A DNA stretch of 64,000 nt from contig CAWDIX010000002.1 of assembly GCA_963802515.1 (NCBI GenBank), positions 566,857-630,856 of the forward strand, written 5' to 3'. This DNA comes from an uncultured Verrucomicrobiae bacterium. GTDB taxonomy: Bacteria > Verrucomicrobiota > Verrucomicrobiia > Limisphaerales > UBA11358. Position numbers and translations under genes: made by a program. Positions 9,483 to 60,840 of the stretch are shown here, piece by piece (position 1 is the stretch's first letter; every line of letters starts with the position of its first letter). A model generated the notes under the pieces. That model was not told the origin of the DNA and ran no database searches. It was given only the letters and a program-made list of their open reading frames with translations.

Positions 9483-9559
9483 GCGCCCGTAGCTCAGATG
9501 GATAGAGCATCTGCCTTCTAAGCAGAGGGTCCCGCGTTCGACTCGCGGCGGGCGCGCCA
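9483..9559 (+). tRNA. tRNA-Arg (anticodon TCT), CCA encoded
   Basis: Hand fold: acceptor GCGCCCG/CGGGCGC, D arm GCTC-AGATGGATA-GAGC, anticodon arm TCTGC-CTTCTAA-GCAGA, T arm CCGCG-TTCGACT-CGCGG, discriminator G, CCA. Confidence 0.93.
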
Positions 9560-9961: not shown

Positions 9962-10036
9962 TGGTGCCCACGGTCGGAGTTGCACCGACACAGTGCGCGT
10001 TTTAAGTGCGCTGCCTCTGCATCGGGCTACGTGGGC
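9962..10036 (-). tRNA. non-canonical tRNA-like gene, anticodon TAA, class-I (short variable arm), GTGC T-loop, CCA encoded
   Basis: Hand fold of the reverse complement: GCCCACG-TA-GCC(C)-GATGCAG-(A)GGC-A-GCGCA-CTTAAAA-CGCGC-ACTGT-GTCGG-TGCAACT-CCGAC-CGTGGGC-A-CCA. All stems pair except one A.C in the anticodon stem. Confidence 0.5.
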
Positions 10037-10041
10037 GAAAT

Positions 10042-10119
10042 TGGTAGCGCGTGAAGGATTTGCACCTTCAACACCTTCCCGTTCTGAGCGGGACGCCTCT
10101 GCTATTGGGCTAACGCGCC
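10042..10119 (-). tRNA. non-canonical tRNA-like gene, anticodon CAG, class-I (7-nt variable region), GTGC T-loop, CCA encoded
   Basis: Hand fold of the reverse complement: GGCGCGT-TA-GCC(C)-AATAGCAG-(A)GGC-G-TCCCG-CTCAGAA-CGGGA-AGGTGTT-GAAGG-TGCAAAT-CCTTC-ACGCGCT-A-CCA. There is a G1.U72 wobble; all other stem pairs are Watson-Crick. Confidence 0.5.
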
Positions 10120-20793: not shown

Positions 20794-21062
20794 GCCGCAG
20801 CCTGCGACCACATCGGCGACGCTGAAGTGCTGCAAATCCTGAACAATTTACCAACGCCAAAAGCGTCTCAAAAGCGCCCACTCCCTCACGCCGCGCGGAG
20901 CTGCACGTTCCACATCTGTTGACTTCGCCGGGAAACATGCATATTTCCCGGTGAAATTGACCTCGTGACCGTCTTCAACCCAGAGGATCACGCGTTCGAT
21001 TCGCGCCCGGCGCCTCACTCTTCCATTTACGATTGGCGATTGGCGATTTACGATTGTCCGTC

Positions 21063-21950
21063 ATGCTGACACTGGAACAACTGGCTGAACTGCTGGCGAA
21101 AAATCGCGCCGCCGCGACCGCGCGCGTGAAAGAATTTTCCATCGGCGACCGATCGTTCGCTTTTAATGCGCAGCCGGCCATTATGGGTGTCGTCAATCTG
21201 TCGCCCGATTCCTGGTACCGCGAAAGCGTCTGCCTGACAGTCGAAGCGGCGGTCCAGCGCGGCAGGGTTTTGATCGCGCAAGGCGCGGACATCGTGGACG
21301 TCGGCGCGGAGTCCACCCTCGCCCACGCCGCGCGCGTGGAGGATGCCGCTCAAAACAGCAAACTGGTTCCCGTCATCAGGGAATTGCGCCAAGGCAGCAT
21401 CCTGGTCTCGGTCGAATCCTATTCATTCGCCGTCACCCGCGCGTGTTTTGAGGCGGGCGCGAACATCCTGAATCTCACGGGCACGGACGGCAGCGATGAA
21501 TTGTATCGCCTCGTGGCCGCCCATGACGCGGCGGTGATTATTTGTTACGTTCAGGGCAAAAACGTCCGCGAAGTCGGCGATTTCGATTTCAGCGCCGATC
21601 CGATCGAAATGATGCGGGAATATTTTGCGCGACAAATTGAGATTGCGCAGCGCCACGGCGTGGAGAGAATTGTTCTGGATCCCGGCCTCGGCTTTTACTA
21701 CCGCAACTTGCAGGACAGCGGCATCCGCGTGCGGCATCAAATGACCGTTTTCCTGAACACGTTCCGTCTGCGGACACTCGGTTTCCCGATCTGCCATGCC
21801 CTGCCCCATGCGTTTGAGTTTTTCCGCGATGAAGTCCGTTGCGCCGAGCCGTTTTTTGCCGTGCTGGCCGCGCTGGGCAAAACGGACCTGTTCCGCACCC
21901 ACGAAGTTCCGCGCATCAAAGCCGTGCTGGACACGATGAAGGCGTTTTAA
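21063..21950 (+). CDS. pterin-binding (dihydropteroate synthase-like) domain protein
   Basis: IMGVVNLSPDSWYRES...AQGADIVDVGAESTL...LDPGLGF matches the DHPS/pterin-binding barrel pattern. The track start at 21033 is a TTG inside a short tandem repeat; the ATG at 21063 is preferred. Confidence 0.7.
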   Translation: MLTLEQLAELLAKNRAAATARVKEFSIGDRSFAFNAQPAIMGVVNLSPDSWYRESVCLTVEAAVQRGRVLIAQGADIVDVGAESTLAHAARVEDAAQNSKLVPVIRELRQGSILVSVESYSFAVTRACFEAGANILNLTGTDGSDELYRLVAAHDAAVIICYVQGKNVREVGDFDFSADPIEMMREYFARQIEIAQRHGVERIVLDPGLGFYYRNLQDSGIRVRHQMTVFLNTFRLRTLGFPICHALPHAFEFFRDEVRCAEPFFAVLAALGKTDLFRTHEVPRIKAVLDTMKAF

Positions 21951-21952
21951 TC

Positions 21953-22023
21953 CGTAGCGGCGTCTCCGCAGAGCACCGCACTCGAAAAAGAATTCAGCGT
22001 GGCGCTGTCGAACCGCCGCTACG
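21953..22023. repeat. palindromic element, family P2 (CGTAGCGGCG ... CGCCGCTACG)
   Basis: The arms cgtagcggcgtctccgcagagcaccgc and gtggcgctgtcgaaccgccgctacg flank an AT-rich centre. The element is related to the one at 52274-52347. Its right arm encodes the last codons and the stop of the minus-strand methyltransferase gene. Confidence 0.7.
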
Positions 22024-22998
22024 ATGCACAAGGAAAACGCCCTCCTCTTCGGATTTGGCAACCCACTGCCCGCACACTTCCAAACCGTGCCGGGCGAGGG
22101 CCACCTGAACCCGCTCCGGCGTGTAACGGTACGAAAAGAAAAGCCGGATGACTTCGCCACGCCGAAATCCAAAATCCTCGCCGTCAACCTCAATCCGGCG
22201 CGCACGGACGAAATGAAACCCCGCTGCTATGCATTTCAGGCCGCTGGTTGTGTCCGTTTCGATTTTGAAACGCAACGCGCCGTCGCCGCACTCGACGCCC
22301 AGATCGAGCAGAAAGGTCATCAGCCAGTCGCGCGTGAGCGGGTTGTCGTATTGCGGCAAGACCTTTTCCACCCCGGCGGCGTAATTTTTGGCCGGCGCCA
22401 GGTTCGCGCTGAACAACAGAAAATCCTTTGGACGAACCAGCGATGCCAGTTTCGGCAAAATCTGCTTCGGCTCAAAGTTTGGAATCATGCCGAAAAAAGT
22501 GACGATGCGTAGGGCGTGGGCCGTGACGCGGGAATCGAGGACAGCGCGCAAGTCATCCGTTGTGGCCAGGTCACAGACGAAGGGAAAACAATGCCTCTCC
22601 GGCACGACTGCCAGGGCGGTCTGCCGTGCAGTCAAAACCATCGCCGAGCTGACATCGCACGGCGTATAGAAAACTTCCCTGCCGCGCGACCGCAACGATT
22701 TCAACAGGCGCGCATCCTTTTGTCCGCCGCCACAACCGAGACCGATGACATGGACGCTCTGTTTTTTGACCCGGGCGGTAGCCGCCGCGAAACCTTTTTC
22801 ATACACCGCCTGACAATCCGCGTCATTCCGTGCCGGCGAGTAAGCCTGGTGCAGCGCCAGCCATTTTTGCGTTTGCCTGACGCTGTCGTAATGAAACTTG
22901 TGGTTCACCCGCCGCGTGCGGAGCGATTCCAGCAAATCGCGGCGAACCGCATCAGGAAACTGGCTGGGGTGAATTGTGACTGTGGCCATATCGGACAT
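21994..22998 (-). CDS. EgtD-like (Methyltransf_33-type) SAM-dependent methyltransferase
   Basis: KFHYDSVRQTQKWLAL...VIGLGCGGGQKDARLL...YTPCDVSSAMV...FFGMIPNFEP parallels the EgtD pattern as I recall it. The track start at 23013 is a GTG; the ATG at 22998 is preferred. Confidence 0.65.
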   Translation of the reverse strand: MSDMATVTIHPSQFPDAVRRDLLESLRTRRVNHKFHYDSVRQTQKWLALHQAYSPARNDADCQAVYEKGFAAATARVKKQSVHVIGLGCGGGQKDARLLKSLRSRGREVFYTPCDVSSAMVLTARQTALAVVPERHCFPFVCDLATTDDLRAVLDSRVTAHALRIVTFFGMIPNFEPKQILPKLASLVRPKDFLLFSANLAPAKNYAAGVEKVLPQYDNPLTRDWLMTFLLDLGVECGDGALRFKIETDTTSGLKCIAAGFHFVRARRIEVDGEDFGFRRGEVIRLFFSYRYTPERVQVALARHGLEVCGQWVAKSEEEGVFLVHRSGGSTAPR

Positions 22999-23021
22999 TG
23001 GGAGTTTCCTCACGGTGGCGA

Positions 23022-25187: not shown

Positions 25188-25206
25188 AGGTAACAATGCC
25201 TTTTGA

Positions 25207-25255
25207 GTTTGGAGTTCCGCGTTTACGCGGTCCGCCTGAAGGCGGGACTCCAAAC
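25207..25255. repeat. palindromic element, family P1 (outer stem GTTTGGAGT/ACTCCAAAC enclosing two GC hairpins)
   Basis: gtttggagt-tccgcgtttacgcgg-tccgcctgaaggcggg-actccaaac. It is intergenic, inside the oxidase gene string. Confidence 0.85.
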
Positions 25256-25262
25256 TGTCATT

Positions 25263-29478: not shown

Positions 29479-30582
29479 TCATTTGTTTGCGGCCAAAGCC
29501 GGTTGGACTCCGAATGCGCCGGGGATGGCGCCGGCAGGTTCAGTGCGGGACAGCGGTTCAAAACGATGGCAAGCCGCGGCACACCACAAGGCGCCAGTCA
29601 CGAGCGAAAGCGCCCCGACCAGCACATGCGCCGTCGCCACGTCGGCGGCCTTGTTCGACCAGATGGTCCACGCGCCAAGCGCAATTTGCCCTGCAATCAA
29701 CGCCAGCCAAAACACCGCCAGCCGTGTCAAAGGGTCCTTTTTACCAAGGCGCCGCCAGGCCCGCTGCGCACTCACGGCGACACCGATAAAAATGGCCACG
29801 GCGACCATCCGGTGCATCATTTGCAGAACGATTTGAAAGGCCGTAATCGGGTTTTCGGAAATGACCTCGATGCGGTCGGCGTTATAGCGCGCCACGGCAG
29901 CCGCGCTCGTGTCCGGCCAGATTTTTCCGTACGCCGCCGGAAAATCGGGAATCGCCAGGCCGGCGTGCTGGTGCCGCATCGTTGCGCCCAGAATCAGTTG
30001 CCCGAAAATCAAAATGGTGGTGAACAGAACGAGTCCGCGCAACAGAGTGCCGGCCTCCGGCACAGCGTGTTGGCCCGCCAAATTCTCTTCGCGCCGCGCC
30101 GGAGGCTGGCGCTCCATTTTATGCCACCAACGGCTGGTGAACAGGCCCAGGCCACAAATCAAAACAAAGAACAATTGCGCGAGCGCACCGTGAACGATGC
30201 CGAGTTTGTCCATGTCGAGCGTCACGCGCAGCCCTCCGAGCACACCCTGGAGCGCGACCAGCACAAACGCGAGCACGCCGAGCCAGCGCATCCAGCGGCG
30301 CGCATCCTTGCGCCAAAGCCAGACGGCGAGCACGGTTGTTAAAAGACCGATGCCGGAAGCGAGCAGACGATGGGTGTGTTCGTAAAAAATGCCGCCCACC
30401 CATTTTGAAACCGGAAACAGAAACATATTGTAACCGTAGGTGTTCGGCCAGTCGGGCACCGACATGCCGGCTTCGTGGCTGGTCACCATGCCGCCCGAGC
30501 CGAGCAGCAAAAACGTCGCGGCGGCGGTCACCACGATAAACCGGTGCAGCCACGAATTGTCATTTTGCGCATTGGCGTTCAT
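29479..30582 (-). CDS. ctaA: heme A synthase (COX15/CtaA family)
   Basis: The ATG at 30582 gives MNANAQ...GGMVTSHEAGMSVPDWPNTYGYNMF...EHTHRLLAS...MMHRMVAVAI. The protein is polytopic. Confidence 0.85.
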   Translation of the reverse strand: MNANAQNDNSWLHRFIVVTAAATFLLLGSGGMVTSHEAGMSVPDWPNTYGYNMFLFPVSKWVGGIFYEHTHRLLASGIGLLTTVLAVWLWRKDARRWMRWLGVLAFVLVALQGVLGGLRVTLDMDKLGIVHGALAQLFFVLICGLGLFTSRWWHKMERQPPARREENLAGQHAVPEAGTLLRGLVLFTTILIFGQLILGATMRHQHAGLAIPDFPAAYGKIWPDTSAAAVARYNADRIEVISENPITAFQIVLQMMHRMVAVAIFIGVAVSAQRAWRRLGKKDPLTRLAVFWLALIAGQIALGAWTIWSNKAADVATAHVLVGALSLVTGALWCAAACHRFEPLSRTEPAGAIPGAFGVQPALAANK

Positions 30583-52002: not shown

Positions 52003-53922
52003 TCAACTACCGCTCGGTAACGCCGCTGCCTTGATTGCGGTCAGTTCTTCCCATCGGGCATAGAGCTTTGCGAGGGTTTCCTTTGCGGCGGCGAGGTCGG
52101 CCACCAGCTGGTTCGTTTGCGTGGCGTGGGTGCGATGAAAATCCGGCGAGGCGAACAGCCCTTCGATACGGGCAATTTCCGCGTCCACAGCGTGTATCTT
52201 CGCTTCCATCCCTTCCAGTTCGCGCGCTTCCGCGAATGAGAGTTTGCGGGGCTTTGCGGGTTTCGCTGCCTTCGTAGCGGCGACTCGGGAGAGCGCCGCT
52301 GTTTTATTAAAAGCTAAGATGGCGGCGCTCTGCCGAGTCGCCGCTACAACCTGCCGTTGTTTTTTCTCCAGGTAATAATCGTAGTCGCCGACGCTGTGGT
52401 GGATTTTTTCGTCGCCTTCAAAAGCGAGGATGTCGGTGCAAACGCGGTTGAGAAAATAGCGGTCGTGGCTTACGACGCACACCACGCCGGGGAACGCAAT
52501 CAGCGCCTCCTCCAGCACCCGCAACGTCGGCAGGTCCAAATCATTCGTCGGCTCGTCGAGGATGAGGAAGTTGCCGCCGTTTTTCAGGATGCGCGCGAGC
52601 AACAGCCGGCTGCGTTCCCCGCCGGAAATCTTTTTGACCTGCGTCAGGATGCGTTCGTCAGCGAACAGGAAGCGCTTCAGGTACGAGCGCACGGAGATTT
52701 TCGATTCGCCCCAGATGACAAACTCCGTGCCGTCGGACGCCTCTTCCAGCACCGTGTGCTCGTCGTTCAATTGCAGGCGGCTCTGGTCCACGTAATTGAA
52801 CTTCGTAAGCTGGCCAGCCTTCACCGTGCCTTCCGTCGGTGCGACCTCGCCGAGGATGATTTTCAACAGCGTGGTTTTGCCCAGGCCGTTCCGGCCGCAG
52901 ACGCCCACGCGTTTGCCATTCTCGAAGGTGAAATTGAATCCGCGAAACAAGGTGCGCCCGCCGAGGTCCATGCCCACATTGGCCAACTCCACCGTGCGAT
53001 TGCCCAGTTGCGGCGGCGGCGGGATGACCAGTTCCATGTCCTCCTCAATCACCGGCCCGTCCTGGGCCGCGGTTTCGTAGTAACGCTCGAAACGGTCCTT
53101 CTGTTTGCTGCGTTGGGCGCGCGGGCCTTGCCGCACCCACGCCAGTTCCTTTTTCAGAAACATCTGCCGCTTGTGCTCGATCACCGCGTCAGCGGCCTGG
53201 CGCTCGGCCTTGTCGAGCAGGTAATCGGTGTAATTGCCGTCGTGCCACCAGAACCGTCCGTCGCTCAACTCGACGATGCGGCCCACCACGCGGTCGAGGA
53301 AATAGCGGTCGTGCGTCACCACGATGAACGTGCCGCTGAAGTTTTCGAGAAATTCCGCGACCCACTCGATGGATTCCGGGTCGAGATGGTTCGTCGGCTC
53401 GTCGAGCATCAGGCAATCCGGGCGCGAAACAATGGCCCGCGCCAGCGCCACGCGCCGTTTCTCGCCGCCGGAAAGCGTTTCGATGCGGCGCGCGCCGTCC
53501 GGACAATTCAGGTGCGAGAGCGCCGTCTCGATGCGTTGATCGAGCGTCCAGCCTTCGAGCGATTGGATGCGATGTTCCAGTTCCTCATGCCGTTTCGAGT
53601 CATGCGGCAACGCTTCAAATTCCGCGATGAGGTCGAGCACGTGTTTCGCTCCTGCGCGCACATTGCCGCGCACGTCGAGCGCCGGATCGAGCGTGAAATC
53701 CTGCGAAAGATAACTCACCACCAGGTCCCGCCGCCGCGTGACGGTGCCCGAATCCGGCGATTGCAGTCCGGCGAGGATTTTCAGGAACGTCGTTTTGCCG
53801 CTGCCGTTGCGACCGACCAGCCCGATGCGTTGTCCCTCGTCAACCGCAAGTGTCGCACGGTCGAGCACCACGCGGTCGCCGTAGCGCACGGTCAATTCGG
53901 TGGCGTTGAGGATGGTGGACAT
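52003..53922 (-). CDS. ABC-F family ATPase (Uup/EttA-like, two ABC domains, C-terminal coiled coil)
   Basis: The ATG at 53922 is followed by GLVGRNGSGKTTFLK and GVCGRNGLGKTTLLK (Walker A twice), and LSGGEKRRVALA and ISGGERSRLLLA (signatures). There is no TM domain. Confidence 0.92.
   Translation of the reverse strand: MSTILNATELTVRYGDRVVLDRATLAVDEGQRIGLVGRNGSGKTTFLKILAGLQSPDSGTVTRRRDLVVSYLSQDFTLDPALDVRGNVRAGAKHVLDLIAEFEALPHDSKRHEELEHRIQSLEGWTLDQRIETALSHLNCPDGARRIETLSGGEKRRVALARAIVSRPDCLMLDEPTNHLDPESIEWVAEFLENFSGTFIVVTHDRYFLDRVVGRIVELSDGRFWWHDGNYTDYLLDKAERQAADAVIEHKRQMFLKKELAWVRQGPRAQRSKQKDRFERYYETAAQDGPVIEEDMELVIPPPPQLGNRTVELANVGMDLGGRTLFRGFNFTFENGKRVGVCGRNGLGKTTLLKIILGEVAPTEGTVKAGQLTKFNYVDQSRLQLNDEHTVLEEASDGTEFVIWGESKISVRSYLKRFLFADERILTQVKKISGGERSRLLLARILKNGGNFLILDEPTNDLDLPTLRVLEEALIAFPGVVCVVSHDRYFLNRVCTDILAFEGDEKIHHSVGDYDYYLEKKQRQVVAATRQSAAILAFNKTAALSRVAATKAAKPAKPRKLSFAEARELEGMEAKIHAVDAEIARIEGLFASPDFHRTHATQTNQLVADLAAAKETLAKLYARWEELTAIKAAALPSGS
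52274..52347. repeat. 26-bp-arm palindromic element (family P2) inside the ABC-F coding sequence
   Basis: gtagcggcgactcgggagagcgccgc - 22-nt AT-rich loop - gcggcgctctgccgagtcgccgctac (one mismatch between arms). On the minus strand it is translated in frame as ...VVAATRQSAAILAFNKTAALSRVAAT... Confidence 0.85.
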
Positions 53923-58948: not shown

Positions 58949-60613
58949 TCATTCCCGCGCCGTCTGCACCGGCAGCGCGGAGAGCGGCACGCGGCCGTTG
59001 GTTTTGGTGAAATATTCCGCCGACCATTCGTCGGCAAACAGCACGACGGGATTTTTGCCGGTGTCGTAGGCGACCCGCGCACCGGTCGGCAGCGACAGGG
59101 CGTCGAGATCATCTTCCTTCATGTCCACCGGCAGCCAGCGGACGACGGTCCACGGGGCGGATTCGAGGCGCGAGACCGCACCGTATTCGTGTTCGAGCCG
59201 GAATTGCACCACCTCGAACTGCAACGGGCCGACGGCGGCGAGCAAAGGCGTTTTGACCGACGAATTGCGAAGGTAAAGTGCCTGAATAACTCCTTCCTGC
59301 ATCAACTGGTCCAGGCCCTGGCGGAATTGCTTGAACTTCGCCGTGTTCGGATTGTGCAGATAGCTGAAGGCCTCGGGCGTGAAGCGCGGGATTTCCTTGT
59401 AAACGATTTTGGGATCGGTCGTGAGGGTATCGCCGATGCCGAAACTGTCGTGACCGACGAGGCCGATGACGTCGCCCGGCCAGGCTTCGTCCACGATTTC
59501 GCGTTCATTGCCGAAAAGTTTGTGGGAGCTGGAGAGGCGCACCTTCTTTTCCGACCGCGAATGATGCACCGTCATGTCGCGTTCGAACTTGCCCGAACAG
59601 ACACGAACGAACGCGATGCGGTCGCGATGCCGCGGGTCCATGTTCGCCTGAATCTTGAAGATGAAACCGGAGAAGGCGGGGTGTTCGGGACTGATAAAGT
59701 TTGGAGTTCCGCCTTCAGGCGGATTTGAATTTGCACGTTTTCCATTCGCCGGGCCGCCTGAAGGCGGAACTCTGAACCTGCCGCGCGGTCCGGGCGCGTG
59801 TTTCAGGAACCCGTCGAGCAAAAGCTGGACGCCGAAATTATTGAGGGCGCTGCCGAAGAACACCGGGGTCGTTCTTTCCGCAAGCACGGCGACGTCATCC
59901 CACTCGTGCCCGGCGTGTTCGAGCATTTCAAGTTCCTCGACCGTCCGGCGAAAGGTTTCGTCATCAAGTTGACCGCGCACGGCGGGATCATCCAGTCCGC
60001 CGACCTGCACCGGGGCGCGATACTGGCCGCCCGTCGTGCGTTCGAAGAGATGCATCAGCTTCGTCTGCCGGTCATACACGCCCTGAAACTCGAAGCCGTT
60101 GCCGATGGGCCAGTTCACCGGGAAAGCGCCGATGCCGAGCACGCGTTCCAGTTCATCGAGTAGCGCGAGCGGGTCCTTCATCGGGCGGTCGCACTTGTTC
60201 ATGAAGGTGAAGATGGGCACGCCGCGCTGGCGGCAAACCTCGAACAGTTTGCGTGTCTGCGGTTCGATGCCCTTGGCCGAGTCAATCACCATCACCACCG
60301 AATCCACGGCGGTGAGCACCCGGTAGGTGTCTTCGGAAAAATCCTTGTGGCCCGGCGTGTCGAGCAGGTTGAGACGGTAACCGCTGTAATCGAATTGAAG
60401 GACCGTGGAACTGATCGAAATGCCGCGTTTTTTCTCCAGCTCCATCCAGTCGGACGTGGTGGCGGCCTGGTTCCGGCGCGCGGTGACCGAGCCGGCGAGC
60501 TGCACCGCGCCGCCATACAGCAACAGCTTTTCCGTCAGCGTGGTTTTGCCCGCGTCCGGATGCGAGATGATGGCGAACGTGCGCCGTTTCTGGATTTCTT
60601 CCGCAATGCTCAC
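58949..60613 (-). CDS. prfC: peptide chain release factor 3 (carrying an in-frame repeat insertion)
   Basis: RRTFAIISHPDAGKTTLTEKLL...DTPGHKDFSEDT...FMNKCDR...FIFKIQANMDPRHRDRIAFVRV. The GTG at 60613 is preferred over the TTG at 60652. Confidence 0.92.
   Translation of the reverse strand: MSIAEEIQKRRTFAIISHPDAGKTTLTEKLLLYGGAVQLAGSVTARRNQAATTSDWMELEKKRGISISSTVLQFDYSGYRLNLLDTPGHKDFSEDTYRVLTAVDSVVMVIDSAKGIEPQTRKLFEVCRQRGVPIFTFMNKCDRPMKDPLALLDELERVLGIGAFPVNWPIGNGFEFQGVYDRQTKLMHLFERTTGGQYRAPVQVGGLDDPAVRGQLDDETFRRTVEELEMLEHAGHEWDDVAVLAERTTPVFFGSALNNFGVQLLLDGFLKHAPGPRGRFRVPPSGGPANGKRANSNPPEGGTPNFISPEHPAFSGFIFKIQANMDPRHRDRIAFVRVCSGKFERDMTVHHSRSEKKVRLSSSHKLFGNEREIVDEAWPGDVIGLVGHDSFGIGDTLTTDPKIVYKEIPRFTPEAFSYLHNPNTAKFKQFRQGLDQLMQEGVIQALYLRNSSVKTPLLAAVGPLQFEVVQFRLEHEYGAVSRLESAPWTVVRWLPVDMKEDDLDALSLPTGARVAYDTGKNPVVLFADEWSAEYFTKTNGRVPLSALPVQTARE
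59699..59777. repeat. family P1 palindromic element inside prfC
   Basis: gtttggagttccgccttcaggcgga ... gccgcctgaaggcggaactctgaac. On the minus strand it is translated in frame as ...[27 protein letters not shown]... Confidence 0.85.
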
Positions 60614-60766: not shown

Positions 60767-60840
60767 AGGAGCGCGGGCTTCAGCCCGCTTCGACGTGAAT
60801 TTCATGGAGGACAATGAAGCGGCGTGAACGCCGCGCTCCT
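60767..60840. repeat. intergenic palindromic element (outer stem AGGAGCGCG/CGCGCTCCT, two inner GC hairpins)
   Basis: aggagcgcgggcttcagcccgc ... gcggcgtgaacgccgcgctcct. It has the same two-hairpin-in-a-stem architecture as family P1. Confidence 0.75.

Follow-up and report, generated by a model that had tools for sequence, protein, structure and literature searches.

A probable REP dimer of a RAYT-linked GTAG family within the uup gene of an uncultured Verrucomicrobiae bacterium

Why should a protein-coding gene carry a long palindrome, and what keeps its two halves complementary? The question is raised by a 64,000-nt stretch of contig CAWDIX010000002.1 from an uncultured Verrucomicrobiae bacterium of the Limisphaerales, referred to here in its whole length as the window. 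The top-ranked inverted repeat in a search of this DNA lies at 52274-52347, within a gene for an ABC-F ATPase whose homologues carry the source name 'ABC subfamily F protein uup'. An earlier interpretation made from the letters alone (the sequence-only reading) had described an inverted repeat with one mismatch and a 22-nt loop, and this is exactly what the DNA contains: two 26-nt arms, GTAGCGGCGACTCGGGAGAGCGCCGC and GCGGCGCTCTGCCGAGTCGCCGCTAC in + strand letters, with one mismatch in 26 pairs and a 22-nt AT-rich spacer. Here, we report that the palindrome is very probably a tail-to-tail dimer of 26-nt repetitive extragenic palindromic (REP) units with a GTAG tag, belonging to a Verrucomicrobiota family that is accompanied in relatives by a REP-associated tyrosine transposase (RAYT).

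The transcript had been expected to form a very stable hairpin, and the predictions agree. In the mRNA sense the palindrome folds at -58.6 kcal/mol, compared with a mean of -31.0 +/- 3.3 kcal/mol for shuffled sequences (z = -8.5), and none of 200 shuffles equals it. One long hairpin between the two arms is predicted at -53.9 kcal/mol and two separate hairpins at -32.5 kcal/mol, each unit folding alone at about -16 kcal/mol. The latter structure is that of the REP unit, GTA-[GCGGCG]-T-[CTC]-GNNA-[GAG]-[CGCCGC], whose stem of 6+3 bp is interrupted by a single bulge and closed by a GNNA loop, and in which G4 of the GTAG head doubles as the first stem base. All nine intra-unit stem pairs are intact in unit 1 of the uup element, and the sole difference between its two units is at unit position 16, in the tetraloop.

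The family to which these units belong was revealed by a pattern scan of a species-genome collection, in which at least 119 regions matched. Nearly all of the matches listed are in Verrucomicrobiota metagenome-assembled genomes (MAGs), often on several contigs per genome, with eight match blocks in CAINDV01 and seven in JBBRWD01; locally, four or five dimers may stand within 2-20 kb in relatives. The sequence-only reading had proposed such a census of a repeat family, and the lack of other members, which it held would speak against it, is contradicted by the result. Statistics on the unit come from 205 type-A units among the matches listed. Their GTAG head is nearly invariant (G1 in 202, T2 in 204, A3 in 183 with G in 18, G4 in 201), with the limit that the scan pattern fixed unit positions 1, 2, 4 and 5 and restricted position 3 to A or G; units beside RAYT genes, recovered independently of this pattern, have the head as well. 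Each of the nine intra-unit pairs is formed in 93-100% of the units, with covariation, as at pair 6-24 (GC 181, CG 10, TA 4), pair 9-21 (GC 195, TA 5, AT 5) and pair 11-20 (CG 184, GC 11), while variation clusters at the bulge (position 10) and at the two middle tetraloop bases (positions 15-16). There is a second, palindromic subtype, B (GTAGCGGCTTTCGGCAGAAAGCCGC), which forms heterodimers. Besides many single units, 86 dimers were called among the matches listed, all of them tail-to-tail with the GTAG heads outward; 17 of these calls are self-overlap artefacts of subtype B, leaving about 68 real dimers. The spacers of the real dimers measure 11-58 nt, most commonly 21-22 nt, and the copies have their arms but not their spacers in common. 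Judged by its letters, the uup element is a standard dimer of this family, with units that differ from the consensus, GTAGCGGCGTCTCGGCAGAGCGCCGC, at one or two positions (Table 1).

A transposase stands beside the repeats in relatives. An open reading frame (ORF) in one of the fetched loci (L093) contains the motifs MPDHLH (HUH) and YLLDNP (Tyr), matches the NCBIfam model REP_Tyr_transpos (E = 2e-14, 53.6 bits) and has about 2000 homologues in the protein database, many of which were named 'REP element-mobilizing transposase RayT' by JGI. Its gene is flanked by REP dimers of the uup-type family, as is a truncated copy in L129. Two further genomes (L210 and L211/L212), chosen via RAYT protein homologues alone as an unbiased test, gave the same arrangement: the RAYT gene is flanked on both sides by REP units with 0-3 mismatches to the consensus, placed directly before its start codon and across its stop codon. 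We identify the gene as a RAYT on the strength of the NCBIfam match, the sequence motifs, the source names and the flanking REPs, and a cognate RAYT flanked by REPs of the family is therefore seen in four relatives' genomes. In two of them the stop codon of the RAYT gene is itself the TAG of the downstream dimer's GTAG head (L210:10588-10591 and L211:10588-10591; GCG TAG CGG and ACG TAG CGG). A REP unit, GTAGCGGCTCTCGGCAGAGAGCCGC, also lies in frame inside the L093 RAYT gene (L093:1905-1930), where it adds about 11 residues; this protein has 206 residues, many homologues have about 195, and the L129 copy is without the insert. Taken as a whole, the evidence gives good support to identifying the uup palindrome as a REP dimer of a GTAG family linked to a RAYT.

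Table 1. Features of the uup locus and of the second REP copy in the window
Feature	Position	Strand	Details
ABC-F (Uup-type) ATPase gene hosting the dimer	52003..53922	-	639 aa; Pfam ABC_tran x2, ABC_tran_Xtn, ABC_tran_CTD
REP-encoded Uup peptide, codons 526-550	52273..52347	-	VAATRQSAAILAFNKTAALSRVAAT, from in-frame translation
REP unit 1, GTAG head at 52274	52274..52299	+	GTAGCGGCGACTCGGGAGAGCGCCGC; 2 mismatches to consensus GTAGCGGCGTCTCGGCAGAGCGCCGC
Dimer spacer between tails	52300..52321	.	22 nt, AT-rich; minus strand codes for ILAFNKT + first base of next codon
REP unit 2, GTAG head at 52347	52322..52347	-	GTAGCGGCGACTCGGCAGAGCGCCGC; 1 mismatch to consensus
Second copy, REP unit 1	21954..21979	+	GTAGCGGCGTCTCCGCAGAGCACCGC; 2/26 mismatches to consensus; within covariance-model match
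Second copy, REP unit 2, decayed	21997..22022	-	GTAGCGGCGGTTCGACAGCGCCACGC; 6 mismatches to consensus

Within the protein, the dimer falls in the linker that precedes the coiled-coil domain (ABC_tran_CTD, residues 560-628), so that of the two locations offered by the sequence-only reading, C-terminal linker or coiled coil, the first holds and the second does not. In an AlphaFold2 model built from 39 homologues, residues 513-557 have a predicted confidence (pLDDT) below 50, and the ABC2 domain and C-terminal helices flanking the linker are confident. The 120 closest Uup homologues are 82-94% identical, those with source names coming from Verrucomicrobiia or Limisphaerales MAGs. In 113 of them the alignment shows an equally long segment, typically VAA[ST]R[QE]SAAI..NKSAALSR.AAT, and the remaining seven have a shorter 'REEFK' linker instead. 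Orthologous DNA was taken from metagenomes and assemblies; in the metagenomes, generic ABC motifs swamped the search and only 14 of 80 loci proved to be close relatives. The hairpin occupies the same codons in 11-13 of these orthologues, including L001, L004 and L081-L089; L002, L003 and L007 have it in partly decayed form, L008 and L012 have lost it or have it disrupted, as have the more remote L005, L009 and L010, and the 'REEFK' forms L013 and L090 do not have it at all. The genes that hold the orthologous copies share only about 80% of their DNA letters, which excludes a recent insertion, and the uup copy is, as far as its distribution among orthologues can tell, ancestral to a large clade. 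The alignment with ABC-F orthologues that the sequence-only reading had suggested as a check therefore cuts both ways: the segment is ancestral, which was half of what that reading held would refute it, and palindromes of the kind do exist elsewhere.

How, then, has the palindrome fared during this long residence in a gene? Across the 11 full-length orthologues, nucleotide identity is 0.82 and 0.75 for the two arms and 0.80 for the whole gene, and synonymous codon identity is 0.62 and 0.56 compared with 0.63 gene-wide. Excess sequence conservation of the arms was rejected on these synonymous values; since the synonymous identities of the arms are no higher than that of the gene, the arms are not frozen but evolve at the gene's rate. 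Their complementarity is retained all the same. In an alignment of 13 orthologues, 85.5% of the stem cells hold a base pair, a share that drops to 27-48% on sliding the partner strand by 1-3 columns, and at nine stem pairs both bases have been substituted. Third codon positions of arm 1 happen to face third codon positions of arm 2 in this reading frame, so silent substitutions in the two arms can compensate for each other. At the eight third-position pairs, 81.7% are paired compared with 65.1 +/- 3.3% in shuffled alignments, and not one of 2000 shuffles is as high, at a pairwise identity of just 0.55; no such excess over shuffles is seen for pairs of first or second positions. As the excess is confined to synonymous third positions, protein-level selection cannot produce the pattern, and the third-against-third register amounts to a natural experiment that separates maintenance of a hairpin at the nucleic-acid level from selection on the protein. 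Unit positions 3 and 15, whose only partners are in the opposite arm, have stayed paired too; more than the unit hairpins must therefore matter, be it the long hairpin or copying from arm to arm. Within the limits of such a comparison, these data show that the palindrome is maintained at the level of the nucleic acid.

The number of events behind this pattern is probably small. The linker segment, comprising the dimer, the spacer and the K-A-x-K repeats that follow, occurs as two haplotypes when the uup orthologues WIN, L081 and L083 are compared with L001, L086, L087 and L089. The distribution of these haplotypes is discordant with the gene tree, which is stable along the gene; L083, for example, has an L001-type linker in a WIN-type gene. 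Many independent compensatory events were rejected on this ground, and recombination must therefore have spread a small number of events between lineages.

From these observations, the following history would result. A dimer with a 22-nt spacer would have been inserted in frame into the DNA for the Uup linker, downstream of the second ABC domain and ahead of the C-terminal coiled coil, in an ancestor of the clade. Read in this frame the unit is free of stop codons, so the insert just adds 25 Ala/Ser-rich residues, and its effect on the protein would most likely be near neutral. The dimer would since have been inherited, with some recombination between lineages, and its pairing would have been kept by selection on the DNA or RNA hairpin or by template switching from arm to arm.

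Several points weigh against this account and have to be set beside it. The first concerns the search: its pattern, GTRGCNGCGNCTCNNNAGAGCNCNGC, was derived from the uup arm and sets 19 of 26 positions, so that the consensus is partly imposed. Others concern the transposase, since the L093 protein scores under the curated NCBIfam cut-off of 80 bits, its match to Pfam Y1_Tnp is insignificant (E = 0.29) and phmmer finds no match to it among PDB sequences. Furthermore, no RAYT was found in the 64-kb window or in the sampled DNA of the window's lineage. This sample consists of the window and about 210 kb around uup in ten relatives' loci, and in the resulting ~270 kb the REPs outside uup come down to one decayed second copy and two borderline units with six mismatches each; high copy number and a cognate RAYT are thus seen in relatives and not in this lineage's sampled DNA. 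No clean empty site occurs among the orthologues, in which homologues without the segment have the different, shorter 'REEFK' linker, and the insertion step therefore comes from family membership rather than from direct observation. Finally, independent compensatory events were few, the arm haplotypes having been spread by recombination.

Among other explanations for the retained complementarity, a possible one, which we hold with less confidence than the history above, is that no selection was involved and that the arms were kept alike by arm-to-arm template switching (quasipalindrome correction) or by gene conversion from other REPs. Template switching is capable of creating and maintaining hairpins and of homogenizing the arms of inverted repeats in coding DNA (PMC8794818, PMC8604942). 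The discordance of the arm haplotypes with the gene tree would fit such copying, as would the variant arm of L001, GTAGCCGCGTCTCGTGAGAGCGCGGC, which recurs letter for letter as dispersed units in other genomes (L142 and L202). On these sequence data, however, copying and selection are indistinguishable, and the decay of the window's intergenic copy to 74% complementarity is not obviously predicted by a purely mutational process.

It is rather unlikely, by comparison, that the hairpin has been co-opted as a functional cis-element of uup, selected for slowing ribosomes, for setting mRNA half-life or as a processing or binding site. Such a role would add to a REP origin and replace nothing in it. 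It would account for the complementarity at fast-evolving synonymous positions and at the two unit positions that pair only between arms, for the survival of the uup copy where other family members are nearly absent, and for the much greater predicted stability of the long hairpin than of two separate ones. Yet the synonymous identity of the arms is not above that of the whole gene, and the hairpin is decayed or lost in orthologues with an intact gene (L008, L012, L005, L013 and L090). Units of the same sequence also occur in unrelated genes and in intergenic DNA, and the element has neither an Rfam match nor a terminator-like tail. Searches for a known regulatory signal were indeed negative: the terminator scan left the palindrome unflagged on both strands and found no U-run tail, GAAGGCAGCG coming right after the hairpin in the mRNA sense; the combined terminator and promoter scan returned nothing at 52274-52347; and Rfam 15, applied to the whole window at the gathering threshold, matched nothing at the palindrome and three tRNAs only. 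The effect on translation or mRNA stability put forward by the sequence-only reading is putative and only a possibility. On the strand antisense to uup, a T-run (TTGTTTTTTCT, 52357-52366, +) lies 10 nt past the hairpin; opposite it on the coding strand are the conserved Lys codons of LEKKQ, and the terminator scan did not flag it either.

That selection acts on the encoded peptide, for instance on a helical linker of set length, and that the palindrome in the DNA is incidental, seems improbable. Amino-acid identity is higher in the arms (0.78 and 0.75) than in the spacer or the following linker (0.65 each), and the motif R-SAA-x4-NK is retained in the hairpin-less orthologues L005 and L006. 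The coordinated synonymous changes at third positions are nevertheless unexplained at the protein level, as are paired non-synonymous swaps at facing stem bases, such as T...V (ACT/GTC) compared with S...D (TCT/GAC), and the structure model has low confidence at this segment.

A more far-reaching proposal, to which we give little chance of being right, starts from the function of the host. In E. coli, Uup acts on DNA intermediates that are branched or stem from template switching (PMC7145654, PMC7470958); ABC-F proteins help ribosomes that have stalled (PMC11381351). The dimer in uup might be a retained, self-referential control element, a 26-bp hairpin or cruciform in the linker-coding DNA that couples the expression or integrity of uup to the process that Uup controls. 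If this were true, REP dimers in genes for genome maintenance and translation, such as uvrA and uup, may be kept preferentially for feedback.

Finally, a palindrome of local origin, arising by chance or template switching in an Ala-rich linker, draws on the self-complementarity of Ala codons (GCN), which makes Ala-rich DNA tend toward quasi-palindromes, but it can be dismissed, as can recent insertion by an active element, because the arms match the dispersed, RAYT-flanking consensus at 24-25 of 26 positions (a match with a chance of about 1e-7 in 64 kb, from 26-mer mismatch counts) and the orthologous copies sit in genes that have diverged by about a fifth of their DNA.

The reading as a REP dimer extends to a second place in the window. 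The sequence-only reading had pointed to a related element at 21953-22023, at the 3' end of a methyltransferase gene, and this relationship stands: a covariance model built from the 13 uup orthologues only matches 21948-22029 with 38 bits (E = 1.7e-5). Over 356 kb of related DNA, it is the only convincing match of this model outside uup. The second copy lies between two convergent genes, Pterin_bind (+, 21033-21950) and Methyltransf_33 (-, 21994-23013), and is thus in a classic REP position; its unit 2 overlaps the last ~9 codons of the latter gene, in which the Pfam domain spans residues 24-329 of 339. With arms that are 74% complementary and a weak fold (z = -2.35), the second copy is decaying, unlike the copy in uup. 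These are the only two REP dimers in the 64 kb of the window, whose lineage appears to be poor in REPs, and the uup copy may for this reason be a long-lived relic. Other GC-rich inverted repeats in the window (59699-59777, 25206-25256, 60767-60840 and 30045-30114) have unrelated sequences, for example GTTTGGAGTTCCGCC...GGCGGAACTCCAAAC and AGGAGCGCGGGCTTCAGCCCGCTTC..., and such a variety of unrelated elements implies several palindromic repeat families in the genome. A relative of the AGGAGCGCGGGCTTCAGCCCGCTTC-type palindrome is present at L085:12861-12949, a marginal match of the covariance model that was rejected as a different palindrome family. The three tRNA genes of the window are at 9483-9556 (+), 9965-10036 (-) and 10045-10119 (-).

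Elsewhere, the family also enters genes. Of the 125 census elements listed, 52 lie within a stop-free stretch of at least 150 aa, most of them probably in spurious ORFs of GC-rich DNA; this ORF-spanning heuristic is too unspecific to give an intragenic fraction, and the intragenic cases checked by homology number four. A fragment of UvrA (L111) has a REP dimer in frame with Pfam domains on both sides in the same frame, and comparison with PDB entry 2r6f places ~36 extra residues exactly at the dimer. In a Ser/Thr kinase-WD40 protein (L123) the in-frame REP covers residues 314-338, inside the Pkinase match (69-369), and in a PSCyt1/PSCyt2/PSD1 protein (L197) it occupies the PSCyt1/PSCyt2 linker, again with Pfam domains on both sides. 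With copies in frame in uup, uvrA, the kinase gene and the RAYT gene, the suggestion of the sequence-only reading that the repeat family tolerates coding DNA is borne out. A uup gene is found in none of the 119 census loci listed. One locus has another arrangement, unlike the dimers: L161:5851-7500 holds three direct copies of a longer repeat, spaced by 683 and 864 nt, each of which opens with a REP unit and continues for at least 84 nt without a difference between copies. Some MAGs with REPs bear other taxonomic labels, namely Bifidobacteriaceae or Bifidobacterium (L104, L106, L124, L128, L139, L150, L160, L165, L177, L191 and L196), Acidoferrum and Acidiferrales (L097 and L125), Hydrogenedentota (L102) and Limnocylindrales (L142 and L205). 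This points to mislabelling or contamination of the bins and not to a true spread of the family.

How does this family relate to known systems? GTAG- and CGTC-tagged REP super-families were defined by Di Nocera et al. (2013; BMC Genomics 14:522; PMC3733652), and passages of that paper describe tail-to-tail dimers that tend toward variable spacers and RAYT genes flanked by REPs. Among GTAG families, intragenic REPs are reported there to be most frequent in the verrucomicrobium Opitutus terrae, where dimers within genes code for 20-30 aa and neither of the two uvrA genes is spared. As far as these passages describe them, the O. terrae families GTAG-17 to -20 resemble the uup-type REP in their GTAG head, 6-9 bp GC-rich stem and short loop, and the GTAG families of that organism resemble it in occurring both as single units and as tail-to-tail dimers with variable spacers, in flanking RAYT genes and in having in-frame copies in uvrA. 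They differ in unit sequence and in the peptides that the inserts encode (VGPALAAG, GTGVPPV and VAGV... in the supplement), and so the uup-type REP is another family of the same kind; the host clade is also different, being Limisphaerales/Pedosphaera-like here and not Opitutus. An R. baltica RAYT in an alignment of the same paper shares the motifs ..LMPDH.H..WMG and NP.RAGL with the RAYT found here. The main text contains no mention of 'uup', the supplement having been checked just for 'ABC' and O. terrae names, and the passages concerned hold no case of orthologous retention of a REP dimer across a large clade. Intragenic GTAG REP dimers in Verrucomicrobia have thus been known since 2013, and the uup copy adds one to that kind.

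More distant parallels are instructive as well. The REP/BIME elements of E. coli, associated with TnpA-REP (RayT), are similarly GTAG-headed imperfect palindromes in inverted pairs with variable linkers, and a single domesticated HUH/Y1 transposase is flanked by REPs; unlike the uup REP, they are essentially extragenic, have hundreds of copies and are unrelated in sequence. The RAYT described here is only distantly related to E. coli RayT, having no phmmer match in the PDB and a score under the NCBIfam cut-off. REPINs (Bertels & Rainey, 2011) share the formation of one long hairpin from two inverted REPs, the link to a RAYT and long vertical persistence. By description, a REPIN has a conserved spacer and replicates as a whole, whereas the spacers here vary both in length and in sequence; membership in the REPINs was rejected on this point, as the inverted doublet is present and its spacer is not conserved between copies. 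Rickettsia palindromic elements (RPEs), compared by description, are likewise in frame, translated, palindromic and conserved between species. The resemblance is functional only: host phylum and unit length differ, the RPE-1 inserts are described as longer in the account consulted, and RPEs have a different sequence and belong to a CGTC-tagged family or to no tagged family. To our knowledge, RPEs are restricted to Rickettsia, and we know of no RAYT of the uup-REP-family type that accompanies them.

What had been an unexplained palindrome in a gene can now be read as a defined REP dimer of a RAYT-linked family in the little-studied Verrucomicrobia. The moderate interest of the locus rests on the age of the uup copy and on the clean signal at its synonymous sites. 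For annotation, it would be wrong to take the REP peptide (VAASRQSAA...AALSR.AAT) and similar inserts in uvrA, the kinase gene and others for protein motifs. In addition, the REP sequence makes a sensitive taxonomic marker, which picks out MAGs that bear non-verrucomicrobial labels.

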